This document shows positions 13,699 to 38,639 of a DNA stretch of 64,000 nucleotides, piece after piece. The notes below the pieces were generated by a model. That model saw nothing but the letters and a program-made list of their open reading frames with translations. It ran no database searches and was not told the origin of the DNA. The position numbers and the translations under genes were made by a program. How positions within the stretch are numbered: position 1 is the stretch's first letter; each line of letters opens with the position of its first letter. The DNA is from Alphaproteobacteria bacterium (GTDB lineage: Bacteria > Pseudomonadota > Alphaproteobacteria > GCA-2731375): positions 6,784,001 through 6,848,000 of the forward strand of contig CBDDPY010000002.1 in the NCBI GenBank assembly GCA_965232515.1, written 5' to 3'.

Positions 13699-14485
13699 AA
13701 TCGCCGCCGCGCTGGCGGCGCTGACCCTGCCGTTGACGGCCGGCGCCGCGACGCCGGCGCAGAAAGGCCTGGCCATCGCCACCGAGATGGACCGCCGCGA
13801 CGAGGGTTGGGGCGATAGCGAGGTGTCGCTGGAGATGGTGCTGGGCAACCGCCAGGGCGAAACCAGCACCCGCGAACTGCGCATCCGCAGCCTCGAGGTG
13901 TCGGAACCCGAATTGGGCGACCGCAGCCTGACCGTGTTCGACCGGCCGCGCGACATCAAGGGCACGGCGCTGCTGTCGCACACCCGCGTGCTCGAGGCCG
14001 ACGACCAGTGGCTCTACCTGCCGGCGTTGAAGCGGGTGAAGCGGATCTCGTCGTCGAACAAGTCGGGGCCATTTGTCGGCAGCGAGTTCGCCTACGAGGA
14101 TCTGCTGTCGCAGGAGGTGGCGAAGTACACCTACAAATGGCTGCGCGACGAGGCTTGCGCGCCCGGCAACACGCTGACGTGCTTCGTTGTCGAGCGCTAT
14201 CCGCAGTACAAGAATTCCGGCTACACCAAGCAGATCGTCTGGATCGACCAACAGGAATACCGGCCGATGCGGATCGACTATTTCGACCGCAAGGACGCGC
14301 TGTTGAAGACTCTACGCATGACCCAGTACCGGCAGTATCTCGGCCAGTACTGGCGCGCGCATCACTGGCGCATGGAGAACCTGCAGACCGGCAAGACCAC
14401 GGACTTGGTCTTCAGCGACTTCGGCTTCCGCCTCGGCCTCAACGAAAACGCGTTTTCGTCAAGCCGGCTGAAGCGGGTGCGGTGA
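13664..14485 (+). CDS. LolA-like outer-membrane lipoprotein-sorting protein family
   Basis: Signal peptide, FDRPRDIKGTALL, DDQWLYLPALKRVKRISS, FVGSEFAYEDL, IDYFDRK. AAGGAG RBS; overlaps the MMPL gene by 35 nt. Confidence 0.88.
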   Translation: MSWNPLPKPLIRIAAALAALTLPLTAGAATPAQKGLAIATEMDRRDEGWGDSEVSLEMVLGNRQGETSTRELRIRSLEVSEPELGDRSLTVFDRPRDIKGTALLSHTRVLEADDQWLYLPALKRVKRISSSNKSGPFVGSEFAYEDLLSQEVAKYTYKWLRDEACAPGNTLTCFVVERYPQYKNSGYTKQIVWIDQQEYRPMRIDYFDRKDALLKTLRMTQYRQYLGQYWRAHHWRMENLQTGKTTDLVFSDFGFRLGLNENAFSSSRLKRVR

Positions 14486-14530
14486 GGACGTCGGGACGGC
14501 GCCGGGCGTCAAATTCCGCCGTCGAGCGAC

Positions 14531-15826
14531 TCAACGGATGATGGGGCCCGAGCTGGCGTCGGACGCGGTATCGGCAAGCCAGACCTTGGCGTAGGGCAAT
14601 AGGGGGTCCGGCATCTCGTCCGGTGCGTACCAACCCCATTCGGTGCCCTCGTCCGAGCCGTGCAGCGCGCCGCCGGTCACGCGAGACGCGAACAGCGCCG
14701 TGACGAACTGCACGCGCCGACCATCCGGATAATCGACGGTCTGGAACGACGGATCGGAGTTGATCGAGACCAGCCGGTCGATCCTGACTGTCAGCCCGGT
14801 CTCCTCCAAGACTTCGCGGTGGAACGCCTCGCGGAGGGATTCACCCGGCTCGACATGGCCGCTGACCGGCGCCCAGCCGTCGCCGAAACGGCGCCTGTGC
14901 AGAAGAACCTGGCCGGCGTCGTTGTAAATAACGGCGCCGACGCCGACCTTTGGCCGCGCGGCCTCGCGCGTGTCGATGATGGTGTGAAGGTGATTCAACG
15001 GTCCCGCGCCGCCGCCGAAGCCCGGCGCCGTGCGCAGCGCCTCGTGGACATACCGCACTGCGGTGGCGGCGGCGGCGCGCAAATCGTGACCCGACGCCAG
15101 GGCCGTCGCGAGCGCTGCCGACAGCGTGCAGCCGGTGCCGTGCGTGCTGCGGGTCGTCAACCGCGGATGCCGGAACTCGGTCGTCTCATCCCGCGTCATG
15201 AGCAGGTCCAAGACCTCCGGCCCGTCGAGATGGCCGCCCTTCATCAACACGGCGCCGGCGCCGGTTCGCAGGAGCCGGTCTCCGGCGCGTCGCATATCGT
15301 CCTCGTTCTCGATCGCCTGACCGGTGAGCACGGCGGCCTCGGGCGCATTCGGCGTCAGAACGGCGGCGCGGGGCAGCATACGATCCGCGAGCGCCGCTTC
15401 GGCTTCCGGATCGAGGAGCCGATGCCCGCTCTTGGCCACCATCACGGGATCGAGAACGATGGGAACCCCGTCGGGGAGGCCGGACAGCGCCTCCGCCACG
15501 CGCTCGATCACCGCCGCCCGATGCAGCATGCCAATCTTGATCGCATCAACGCCAATGTCATCCAGGCACACGCGGATCTGGTCGGCCACGAACCGCTCGG
15601 AGACCTTGACGACGCTCTGGACGCCAAGCGTGTTTTGCGCGAGCAGGGCGGTGATGGCGCCTTGCGCGTACCCGCCGAGCGCGGTGATCGTCTTGATGTC
15701 GGCCTGCAGCCCGGCGCCGCCGCTGGGGTCCGTGCCGGCTATGGCGAGAACCCTCGGCAACGCTGGTTTCGAGCGCGTGGCGTTCGGTGCCGGACTGAAC
15801 CGGGTCGTGTAATCACAGGATGGCAT
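14531..15826 (-). CDS. thiD: HMP/HMP-P kinase fused to a C-terminal Nudix hydrolase domain
   Basis: ThiD motifs GTDPSGGAGLQADIKT, DPVMVAKSG, TPNAPEA, KGGH, HGTGCTLS, GAGPLNH, followed in frame by the Nudix box GHVEPGESLREAFHREVLEETGL. Confidence 0.9.
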   Translation of the reverse strand: MPSCDYTTRFSPAPNATRSKPALPRVLAIAGTDPSGGAGLQADIKTITALGGYAQGAITALLAQNTLGVQSVVKVSERFVADQIRVCLDDIGVDAIKIGMLHRAAVIERVAEALSGLPDGVPIVLDPVMVAKSGHRLLDPEAEAALADRMLPRAAVLTPNAPEAAVLTGQAIENEDDMRRAGDRLLRTGAGAVLMKGGHLDGPEVLDLLMTRDETTEFRHPRLTTRSTHGTGCTLSAALATALASGHDLRAAAATAVRYVHEALRTAPGFGGGAGPLNHLHTIIDTREAARPKVGVGAVIYNDAGQVLLHRRRFGDGWAPVSGHVEPGESLREAFHREVLEETGLTVRIDRLVSINSDPSFQTVDYPDGRRVQFVTALFASRVTGGALHGSDEGTEWGWYAPDEMPDPLLPYAKVWLADTASDASSGPIIR

Positions 15827-15832
15827 GATCGC

Positions 15833-15935
15833 AGCTCCCTCCGCCGGTCCTAACCGGATCAGGTGATGCGGGTCGCGACGCCGACCGAAACTCGGTCCGT
15901 TCGCCTCTCAGCTGCCTGCCGCAGCTCCCCGGCTC
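15833..15935 (-). ncRNA. TPP (thi-box) riboswitch
   Basis: - strand GGGGAGC...GCUGAGAGG...GACCCGCAUCACCUGAUCCGGUUAGGACCGGCGGAGGGAGC matches the TPP consensus (UGAGA, ACCC, CCUGAU, AGGGA) and lies directly upstream of thiD. Confidence 0.93.
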
Positions 15936-16004
15936 GTTTCAAATCTAGTCAGTCCCGATCAGGACATCAACGGTTGACACGGCGTTCTCCGATGGTGCCG
16001 CGTC

Positions 16005-37100: not shown

Positions 37101-38639
37101 ATGTTGGAAGGCATCCTGATCGGCCTGACGACCGCGCTGACGTTCAGCAACCTGCTGTTCGTCCTGATGGGCTGCCTGGTCGGCACCTTTATCGGCATGC
37201 TGCCGGGCCTGGGGCCGATGTCGGCCATCGCGCTGATGATCCCGATCGCCGCGAGCCTCGATCCCTCGGCCGGGATCATCCTGATGGCGGCGGTCTATTA
37301 CGGCGCCATCTTCGGCGGCTCGACCTCGTCGATCTTGATCAACGCGCCGGGCGTCGCCAGCACGGTGGCGACGTCGTTCGACGGCTTTCCCATGGCGAAG
37401 CAGGGCAGGGCCGGCAAGGCGCTCGCCATCGCCGCCTATTCGTCGTTTTCCGGCGGCGTGATCGCGGCGTTGTTCCTGCTGATCGCGGCGCCATTCCTGG
37501 CCGGCGTGTCGCTGGCCTTCCAGTCGACGGACTATTTCGCGCTGATGGTGCTGGGCCTGGTCGCCGTCGCCGCCTTTGCCGGCAAGGGCGATATGGCCAA
37601 GGCGCTGTTGATGACCGTGATCGGCCTGATGCTGTCGACGGTCGGCACCGACCAGACCCAGGGCGTGCCCCGGTTCACGCTGGGCATGATCGACCTGATC
37701 GATGGCATTTCGTTCCTGCTGCTGGTCATGGCGACCTTCGCATTGTCCGAGGCGCTGATGGCGATCCTGAAGCCGAAGGACGACGCTGAACGGCTGAAGG
37801 AAAAGGAAGCCTCGGAAAACCTCGGCTCCATGGCGATCGGCAAGCACGAGGTCAAGGAGATGGCGCCGGTGATCGGCCGCTCGTCCATTCTCGGCTTTCT
37901 GATCGGTGTGCTGCCGGGCGCGGGCGCGACCATCGCCAGCTTCCTCGCCTACGGAACCGAGCAGCGGCTCGCTGGCCCGAAGAAAGGCGCCGAGTTCGGC
38001 AAGGGTTCGGTGCGCGGCCTGTCGGCGCCAGAGACGGCCAACAACGCGGCGGCCACGGGGTCGTTCGTGCCGCTGCTGACGCTCGGCATTCCGGGCTCCG
38101 GCACGACGGCGATCATGCTCGGCGCGCTGATCGGTTACGGCATTCAGCCGGGCCCGCGTCTATATATCGATCAACCCGAGGTGTTCTGGTCGGTCATCGT
38201 GTCCATGTGGATCGGCAATATCGTGCTCTTGATCCTGAACCTGCCGCTGATCCCTTATATCGCGCGGGTGCTGGCGATCCCGTCGCGGTTCCTGCTGCCG
38301 CTGATCCTGTTCTTCTCGCTGATCGGCGTCTATTTCGTCAGCTTCAACACCTTCGACATCCAGCTGATGGTGATCTTCGCCGTGGCCGCTGTTGTCCTGC
38401 GGTTTCTCGATTTTCCCATGGCGCCGATGATCCTGGGCTTCATTCTGGGCGGCATGATGGAGGAGAACCTGCGCCGGGCGCTGCTGATCAACAACGATAG
38501 CTGGTCGTTCCTGTGGGAGCGCCCGCTGACCCTGTCGATCCTGCTGATCGCCGCTGTCTGCCTGGTGCTGCCCTTCGCGACGGCGCAGATCAAACGCGTG
38601 AAGGACAGCGTCTACGGCCGCACCCGGGAAGGCGACTGA
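37101..38639 (+). CDS. tctA: TTT large permease
   Basis: GMLPGLG, YYGAIFGGSTSSILINAPG, PETANNA, LTLGIPGS. Confidence 0.93.
   Translation: MLEGILIGLTTALTFSNLLFVLMGCLVGTFIGMLPGLGPMSAIALMIPIAASLDPSAGIILMAAVYYGAIFGGSTSSILINAPGVASTVATSFDGFPMAKQGRAGKALAIAAYSSFSGGVIAALFLLIAAPFLAGVSLAFQSTDYFALMVLGLVAVAAFAGKGDMAKALLMTVIGLMLSTVGTDQTQGVPRFTLGMIDLIDGISFLLLVMATFALSEALMAILKPKDDAERLKEKEASENLGSMAIGKHEVKEMAPVIGRSSILGFLIGVLPGAGATIASFLAYGTEQRLAGPKKGAEFGKGSVRGLSAPETANNAAATGSFVPLLTLGIPGSGTTAIMLGALIGYGIQPGPRLYIDQPEVFWSVIVSMWIGNIVLLILNLPLIPYIARVLAIPSRFLLPLILFFSLIGVYFVSFNTFDIQLMVIFAVAAVVLRFLDFPMAPMILGFILGGMMEENLRRALLINNDSWSFLWERPLTLSILLIAAVCLVLPFATAQIKRVKDSVYGRTREGD

Follow-up and report, generated by a model that had tools for sequence, protein, structure and literature searches.

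A riboswitch-associated ThiD-Nudix fusion of mosaic origin in an alphaproteobacterium: a possible proofreading kinase of thiamine salvage

In this work, which is based on the analysis of a 64,000-nucleotide (nt) window from the genome of an Alphaproteobacteria bacterium of the GCA-2731375 lineage (GenBank assembly GCA_965232515.1, contig CBDDPY010000002.1, positions 6,784,001 to 6,848,000 of the forward strand), we describe a single gene, thiD-nudix, in which the thiamine-pathway kinase ThiD is joined in frame to a Nudix hydrolase domain downstream of a thiamine pyrophosphate (TPP) riboswitch. Positions below are those of this window unless a contig or locus is named. The gene is predicted to encode a complete ThiD kinase, a short flexible linker and a complete Nudix pyrophosphohydrolase. 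It is found, ungapped, on contigs from other studies, and comparison with related proteins indicates that its ThiD and Nudix parts have different histories. The ThiD-Nudix architecture is already present in sequence databases. Full-text literature searches found no paper in which such a fusion was described or characterised, which agrees with the first-pass annotation of this DNA, whose author knew of no characterised example.

The open reading frame (ORF) occupies positions 14531..15826 of the minus strand and comprises, in a single frame, 431 amino acids (aa) and the stop codon. Residues 33-278 (14993..15730) form the ThiD domain, a kinase of hydroxymethylpyrimidine (HMP) and its phosphate (HMP-P), which was matched by the entire profile of Pfam PF08543 (Phos_pyr_kin; 1-246 of 246, E 5e-89) and by the NCBIfam equivalog-domain model TIGR00097 (HMP-P_kinase; 291.3 bits vs a cut-off of 204.95, model positions 1-253 of 254). 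The GTGC anion hole and the DPV..K motif are diagnostic active-site motifs of the ribokinase type, and the fusion has the motifs GGAGLQAD (36-43), DPVMVAKSG (126-134) and THGTGC (228-233), with G230, T231 and G232 invariant across the four ThiD-Nudix fusion proteins that were compared. The NCBIfam models of known ThiD fusions, NF011301, NF007070 and NF006346, covered the ThiD part only, and all of them scored far under their cut-offs. A linker of about 13 residues (279-291, 14954..14992) with a low predicted local distance difference test score (pLDDT) leads to the Nudix domain, which we call type A (residues 292-413, 14588..14953; PF00293, E 1.2e-21, 77.5 bits vs a cut-off of 21.1) and whose conserved C-terminal tail extends to residue 431 (14534). 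The Nudix box GHVEPGESLREAFHREVLEETGL (residues 323-345, 14792..14860) agrees with the consensus GX5EX7REUXEEXGU at all positions, and its catalytic residues R337, E338, E341 and E342 are likewise invariant across the four proteins. The Nudix domain was modelled as a canonical Nudix fold with a pLDDT of 93.6 and a predicted template modelling score (pTM) of 0.87, while the full-length model (pTM 0.68) consisted of two confident domains and a linker in which residues 284-288 had a pLDDT below 50. The GC content at third codon positions (GC3) is 0.84 in both halves of the gene, like that of the host. Together with the Rfam match that is described below, these matches confirm the earlier description of an in-frame ThiD and Nudix pair with a perfect box under a TPP riboswitch.

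The 90% cluster of the fusion protein contains three more 431-aa sequences (P0302-P0304), which come from separate contigs and align to it ungapped at 91-92% identity. Each has 34-38 substitutions, 20-22 of them in residues 1-284 and 14-16 in residues 285-431, and the Nudix box is free of substitutions. Moreover, contigs from public runs of four studies (X3, X4, X5 and X7), which were aligned to positions 14400-16000, span the domain junction near 14975 with no indel listed, the contig cover being incomplete in places (e.g., 15318-15479 in X3). Runs X3 and X7 contributed identical pieces of 538 and 209 nt over the junction. The piece from X4, a coral-reef metagenome, is 662 nt long, takes in the stop codon, the entire Nudix domain and the junction, and has 44 differences (93% identity) and no gap; the 611-nt junction piece from X5, a run filed as RNA, has 26 differences and no gap. 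Because contigs cannot show transcription, the latter is at most a hint of it. Within the Nudix-coding part, the listed differences fell on the third codon position in 19 of 26 cases in X4 and 11 of 13 in X5, changed eight and two amino acids, respectively, and introduced no stop; this third-position bias and the lack of stops in diverged relatives argue that the Nudix frame has been conserved under purifying selection. The fusion is rare: searches of 18 genomes of the same family and of 400 genomes sampled from the class did not find it, and this rarity is what an artefact, i.e., the loss of a stop codon or the mis-assembly of two adjacent genes into one, would have in its favour. The first-pass annotation had pointed to a lost stop codon in case the fusion were private to this assembly, but other contigs carry it ungapped. 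The three ungapped 431-aa versions on independent contigs and the contigs of four studies that pass the junction without indels rule out such an origin, and homologous fusions (P0002, P0003/P0305 and P0121) exist at 46-60% identity to the present protein, so we regard its probability as practically negligible. Diverged copies of the stretch also occur in runs X4, X6 and X8-X13, which are labelled as coral-reef, coral and marine metagenomes.

The related fusions reveal how the two parts were combined. In the comparisons below, P0001 is the fusion studied here, and P0002, P0003 and P0121 are proteins of 419, 404 and 424 aa. When the whole protein was used as the query, three of the best 120 of 7999 matches had both families (its own cluster, P0002 and P0003), and the other 117 were plain ThiD proteins of at most 62% identity. 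The Nudix part as a query gave 32 matches, two of which were ThiD-Nudix proteins (its own cluster and P0121), and the Nudix part of P0002 retrieved only P0002 and P0003. P0001 and P0002 are 78% identical in ThiD vs 30% in Nudix, and P0001 and P0003 70% vs 30%; the relation is reversed for P0001 and P0121 (ThiD 44%, Nudix 60%), while P0002 and P0003 are similar in both parts (68% and 60%). In 20-residue windows, the identity between P0001 and P0002 was 50-100% in ThiD past a variable N-terminal extension and 57-67% over the linker, which is homologous between the two proteins, and fell to 10-50% starting at the first Nudix strand. Two Nudix types can therefore be distinguished by these identities, namely type A in P0001 and P0121 and type B in P0002 and P0003/P0305. 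In the ThiD tree (67 rows), P0001, P0302, P0002, P0003 and P0305 form an exclusive clade with a support of 99 in the Shimodaira-Hasegawa-like approximate likelihood ratio test (SH-aLRT), and within this clade P0001 pairs with P0002, a carrier of Nudix type B (support 91), P0121 being placed far away on a long branch. In the maximum likelihood (ML) tree of the Nudix domains (119 rows), type B falls outside the type-A clade (branch support 96), and the stand-alone proteins L037, P0156, L038 and L039 intervene between P0001 and P0121 (supports 87-94). The simplest reading of these results is that an older ThiD-Nudix(B) gene had its Nudix part replaced by type A in the lineage of P0001 and that P0121 represents an independent ThiD-Nudix(A) join. 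Additionally, a cluster of 97 proteins of 448 aa in the ESM Atlas has PF00293 and PF08543 in 100% of its members; its commonest phylum is Candidatus Fermentibacterota, and its automatic name includes a Nudix N-terminal element. This cluster and P0002, P0003/P0305 and P0121 share the same two Pfam families with the fusion and are uncharacterised. ThiD-Nudix joins, as judged from these comparisons, arose more than once, and their recurrence with unrelated Nudix types argues for a functional link between the two domains.

The aptamer of the TPP riboswitch (RF00059) was found at 15819..15941 of the minus strand with 57.8 bits vs a gathering score of 54.3, the match covering the full model (1-105 of 105; E 5.6e-11 in a local search). 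The first-pass annotation, which was otherwise accurate, had ended the stretch at 15935, i.e., 6 nt short of the 5' end of the aptamer. The 3' end of the aptamer reaches 7 nt into the ORF and overlaps the ATG at 15824-15826. According to the alignment with the RF00059 consensus, GGAGGGA (15836..15842, minus strand) is both the conserved 3' element of the aptamer and Shine-Dalgarno-like, with its GGAGG core 11 nt upstream of the thiD-nudix ATG. As space for a separate expression platform is absent, we infer direct translational occlusion, in which the TPP-bound aptamer would shut off the translation of thiD-nudix. The gene is solitary: 63 nt separate the aptamer from the end of an upstream clpP-like gene, and the downstream neighbour is convergent. 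Between 14300 and 16100, no sigma-70-like promoter sites were found, a result that carries no information for the host organism, and the sole terminator-like site, for which the chance expectation was 1.1, was a GC-rich hairpin at 14932-14945 (minus strand) that is followed by TTATTTACAA and lies within the ORF exactly where the Nudix-coding part begins. Elsewhere in the window, at 38151-38278 of the minus strand, the Rfam family Cis8_sRNA (Ruegeria cis8 small RNA) was matched with 63.3 bits vs a gathering score of 58.

The host genome (7.39 Mb, four contigs, 96% complete) provides the setting in which this gene would act. No match to ThiC was found in it, so the pyrimidine of thiamine must be salvaged, and since a search of 18 sampled genomes of the family likewise gave no ThiC in 17, pyrimidine auxotrophy is a trait of the family. 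The host also has ThiS-ThiG, ThiE, two TenA-family genes and 17 Nudix matches. ThiS and ThiG are contained in one 353-aa frame (contig C2:1753660-1754718, L078:3661-4719, minus strand; PF02597 at residues 28-91 and PF05690 at residues 104-348), with no TPP riboswitch nearby. Three TPP riboswitches were found in the genome, including the one of thiD-nudix. Downstream of one of them lie the genes of an ABC ATPase, a BPD_transp_1 permease and an NMT1/THI5-like binding protein, a set typical of ThiXYZ-type pyrimidine importers. The other (66.3 bits) stands ahead of a solute-binding protein of the DctP (TRAP) type (contig C2, about 6281054-6282340; L075:5555-6841, minus strand), which is followed on the same strand by ThiM (PF02110, 4.6e-77; L075:4723-5535) and a BCCT-family transporter (L075:2905-4698); this unit might serve to take up the thiazole moiety by way of an unusual binding protein.

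Strong ThiD copies also numbered three, the two besides the fusion having no riboswitch. A 264-aa copy follows glmM and is 54% identical to the ThiD part of the fusion; a 293-aa copy (contig C2:6959766-6960644, L081:3266-4144, minus strand) is 46% identical to it and adjoins a UPF0047 (YjbQ-like) gene (L081:4157-4681, minus strand) in a patch of lower GC content (GC3 0.67 vs about 0.84 elsewhere), and the two look like a separately acquired pair. The lack of ThiC and the restriction of riboswitches to the importer, the DctP/ThiM unit and the fusion, the other ThiD genes having none, suggest that the fusion is a salvage kinase that is induced by starvation. In each of the 18 same-family genomes, the ThiD part of the fusion had exactly one match, at 52-58% identity, i.e., at the level of the glmM-linked copy. 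A query with the Nudix domain found no close homologues in 24 same-family genomes (best 38% identity, 7.8e-11), and a query with P0002 at E <= 1e-90 matched, of 401 genomes of the class, only that of the host. In the host the fusion is a third, accessory ThiD, and since the sampled relatives yielded no such fusion, it is an accessory gene of the species and its near kin. The two small contigs of the assembly, C3 (5516 bases) and C4 (10862 bases), have a GC content of 0.46 and 0.42, respectively, vs 0.65 for the main contig, and could stem from a foreign source or from contamination.

In the mechanism that we propose, low TPP would lead the aptamer to free the Shine-Dalgarno site and the start codon, and the importer and ThiD-Nudix would then be made together. 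The kinase would turn imported pyrimidines into diphosphates, and the adjacent Nudix domain would remove the beta-phosphate from products of the HMP diphosphate (HMP-PP) type. Its preferred targets may be wrong pyrimidine diphosphates, either bacimethrin-type or damaged, whose precursors ThiD would also phosphorylate; alternatively, it may serve as an overflow valve that removes surplus HMP-PP under a shortage of thiazole phosphate. That cells monitor the build-up of HMP-PP is indicated by the HMP-PP riboswitch (excerpts of PMC7266159). The outcome would be that fewer antivitamin cofactors are built during salvage, and the working mode would be like that of E. coli NudJ, even though the domain lies outside the NudJ family. 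Hydrolysis of HMP-PP-type diphosphates by the Nudix domain is suggested because the pairing recurs with non-orthologous parts (the Rosetta-stone argument), and we rate it slightly below an even chance. The more specific proposal, that ThiD-Nudix, in bacteria dependent on imported thiamine pyrimidine, is a dedicated salvage editor, in which the kinase activates any pyrimidine that comes in and its own diphosphatase breaks down those pyrimidine diphosphates that are antivitamins or damaged before they reach ThiE, and that its pairing has been strongly selected, is tentative and, in our judgement, rather doubtful.

Several known systems can be compared with this proposal. E. coli NudJ (YmfB) is a diphosphatase of HMP-PP, of its methoxy and trifluoromethyl analogues (MeO-HMP-PP and CF3-HMP-PP) and of methoxy-TPP (MeO-TPP; excerpts of PMC5158307 and PMC5627462), and excerpts of PMC5158307 and PMC5389931 attribute to it protection against bacimethrin-type antivitamins; its structure is PDB 3SHD (excerpts of PMC5389931). 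NudJ resembles the proposed ThiD-Nudix in that a Nudix hydrolase acts at the step whose product ThiD makes, but it is a stand-alone enzyme, and no specific kinship of sequence or fold to the Nudix domain of the fusion was detected by the PDB sequence and Foldseek listings. To our knowledge, a single E. coli screen, that of NudJ, is the only source of evidence for the hydrolysis of HMP-PP and of its antivitamin analogues. Another precedent is Schizosaccharomyces pombe Tnr3 of the YJR142W/AtNUDT20 family, which combines thiamine diphosphokinase with a Nudix diphosphatase of oxy- and oxo-thiamine diphosphate (ThDP; excerpts of PMC5158307). Like the fusion, Tnr3 unites a kinase of the thiamine pathway with a Nudix domain, which in Tnr3 pre-empts damage; its kinase, however, acts at a later step of the pathway and is eukaryotic, while that of the fusion is ThiD, the Nudix domain of the fusion matching only the generic PF00293. 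Goyer is said to have noted in 2013 that the Tnr3/YJR142W family has a distinctive Nudix domain.

YzgD of Paenibacillus thiaminolyticus is a haloacid dehalogenase (HAD)-type pyridoxal phosphatase with a Nudix domain, and in paenibacilli its gene shares an operon under a TPP riboswitch with thiM, thiD, thiE, bacimethrin-synthesis genes and thiaminase I (excerpts of PMC5627462). Similar to the Nudix domain of the fusion, it is co-regulated with thiD by a TPP riboswitch, but its gene is separate from thiD and its partner is HAD, whereas the partner in the fusion is ThiD and no HAD family was found by Pfam on the 431-aa protein. An exhaustive profile-free search with the Nudix domain gave 7973 relatives, eight of them at E <= 1e-30, and of the 28 longer relatives that were picked from the best 150 of these for a Pfam scan, 11 had the YzgD-like HAD-Nudix architecture, YzgD itself being compared by description only. 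The known fusions ThiD-ThiE, ThiD-TenA and ThiD-ThiN have the same ThiD domain with a synthetic or salvage enzyme as the partner, unlike ThiD-Nudix, whose second domain is a hydrolase and could reverse the work of the kinase. Taken together, the fusion is not detectably a member of the NudJ, Tnr3/YJR142W or YzgD families, its two parts being assigned to ThiD and to the Nudix superfamily by their profile matches; by analogy, we rate it among the thiamine-pathway enzymes that carry a sanitising Nudix domain.

A number of results weigh against the hydrolysis of HMP-PP-type diphosphates and against the mosaic history that supports it. Cleaving HMP-PP amid a scarcity of TPP would be wasteful unless the enzyme discriminates, and editing of wrong pyrimidines is therefore the more coherent variant. 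No fixed interface between the two domains was predicted in the full-length model. The top Foldseek PDB matches listed for the Nudix domain were all Nudix proteins (E 1e-10 to 1e-8) of a generic kind, i.e., the Ap6A hydrolase Ndx1, a Rickettsia ADP-ribose pyrophosphatase, 3smd, a UDP-X diphosphatase, CDP-Chase and NUDX1 with geranyl diphosphate, and the NudJ structure 3SHD was absent both from the top Foldseek matches listed and from the 50 PDB sequences at E <= 1e-3. The named NCBIfam Nudix families were all far under their cut-offs for type A (best 35.1 bits vs 139). None of the 28 longer Nudix relatives scanned contained ThiD, and the partners in the wider family (HAD-IIA, SIS, NTP-transferase) point more towards substrates such as sugar nucleotides or other nucleoside diphosphates linked to a second moiety (NDP-X). 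The nearest type-A genes in metagenomes are stand-alone (72, 70 and 68% identity); ThiD was found at none of the 37 metagenome loci of type-A Nudix by a ThiD hidden Markov model that recognised nine of nine controls, and neither a TPP riboswitch nor any other Rfam family was found at the 20 best of these 37 loci. The neighbours of the stand-alone type-A genes, as judged by eye, were pqqB/C/E-like or LysE/ArsR/EamA-like genes. Since these relatives lack a thiamine context, the type-A subfamily as such is not tied to thiamine. With regard to the history, the hypothesis that the four Nudix domains of the ThiD clade belong together in one clade was not rejected by the approximately unbiased (AU) test on 39 rows (p 0.276, log-likelihood difference 9.1), and the evidence for the replacement of the Nudix part thus consists of the identity contrast and the ML topologies. 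The proofreading of thiamine precursors that the first-pass annotation proposed thus emerges with a mixed record: the recurrent joins argue for a functional link, and the lack of kinship to NudJ or Tnr3, the non-thiamine contexts and the NDP-X-like partners speak against it.

Other features of the Nudix subfamily are of a more general nature. Among solved structures, the closest sequence relative of type A was the uncharacterised 3smd (1.2e-14) and that of type B was 4dyw, the PDB neighbours of both types being generic Nudix proteins; the best named NCBIfam family for type B, NF006530, reached 49.1 bits vs a cut-off of 245, and residues 285-431 of the fusion matched no Pfam family besides PF00293 at E <= 0.01. 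The subfamily alignment shows the signature GVYSDP..Q.V.YPDG..V.FV together with a C-terminal Arg that is nearly invariant. The ADP-ribose pyrophosphatase subgroup is marked by a Pro that is conserved some 16 residues past the Nudix box, and the invariant Pro of this subfamily (that of SDP, P75 of the domain alignment) stands 14 residues past the last residue of the box, the exact counting of the rule being uncertain. The 28 longer relatives comprised, besides the 11 HAD-IIA-type proteins of about 400-430 aa, which were the commonest, five tandem Nudix proteins, two with SIS (one of them also HAD-like), one NTP-transferase, one methyltransferase, one DinB/MST protein and seven with an unassigned N-terminus; judged by this range, the subfamily is a very promiscuous fusion partner. 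The relatives P0254, P0287, P0218 and P0207 are fused to HAD-like and SIS domains, to SIS alone, to a sugar-nucleotidyl transferase and to a class I methyltransferase, respectively. A scan of genome contigs for stand-alone type-A genes found two loci with only a frameshifted remnant and no riboswitch, L036:5904-6329 and L035, from a metagenome-assembled genome of Rhodobiaceae and from Parvibaculum indicum (69% identity over the last 48 residues). The remnant adjoins a ParB-like ORF of 591 aa and a cation-efflux gene, the same partial match was seen at the metagenome loci L056-L058, and the stand-alone type-A gene may travel on mobile DNA in the class.

Two other functions have to be weighed against HMP-PP hydrolysis. 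The Nudix domain might, like the other members of its subfamily, be a house-cleaning enzyme for NDP-X, ADP-ribose or nucleotides, the link to ThiD being indirect (e.g., through the recycling of nucleotide conjugates) or neutral and the fusion persisting with no role specific to thiamine. The family partners (HAD-IIA, SIS, NTP-transferase, methyltransferase and tandem Nudix) are compatible with this view, as are the database names of members, which include 'ADP-ribose pyrophosphatase YjhB', the stand-alone relatives in non-thiamine contexts, the generic structural neighbours and the activity of the YzgD Nudix domain, likened here by description only, on CDP-alcohols, ADP-ribose and NDP-sugars (excerpts of PMC5627462). 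Yet the Nudix partners of ThiD are of at least two types, which share only 30% identity, type A occurs on two very different ThiD proteins, the Nudix/ThiD cluster in the Atlas has 97 members, and such repeated joins are unlikely to be neutral; moreover, the Nudix frame is under purifying selection in the diverged relatives. We consider a house-cleaning role unlikely.

The domain might also act later in the pathway, on ThDP analogues (oxy-, oxo- and 2'-methoxy-ThDP), in which case its link to ThiD would reflect co-expression with salvage. Tnr3, in which a thiamine kinase is combined with a Nudix domain that removes damaged ThDP (excerpts of PMC5158307), offers a precedent, NudJ also hydrolyses MeO-TPP (excerpts of PMC5158307 and PMC5627462), the gene is under the control of a TPP riboswitch, and discrimination against analogues would sidestep the problem of waste. 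The partner, however, is a pyrimidine kinase and not a ThDP-making enzyme, residues 285-431 are PF00293 only with no detectable relation to characterised thiamine Nudix enzymes, and the stand-alone relatives lack a thiamine context. Action on ThDP analogues is distinctly improbable in our view, and what probability remains falls to functions beyond these three.

If the Nudix domain is a generic NDP-X hydrolase, the finding reduces to a rare domain architecture. The mosaic, in which one ThiD clade carries two Nudix types and one Nudix type is carried by two ThiDs, provides assay-independent evidence that the pairing itself has been selected. Selection for salvage editing would, if true, explain why, within one ThiD clade, a non-orthologous type-A module took the place of type B and why the pairing was rebuilt on an unrelated ThiD (P0121) and again in another phylum. 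The function is inferred only, but the proofreading idea deserves a test in view of the mosaic evolution and of a regulon that is confined to salvage. If the idea is true, an obligate pyrimidine salvager that makes a kinase and its diphosphatase as one chain, and only during thiamine shortage, would be a natural and directly testable case of the pre-emption of damage or antivitamins, and pre-emption at the pyrimidine step would parallel that by Tnr3 at the ThDP step.

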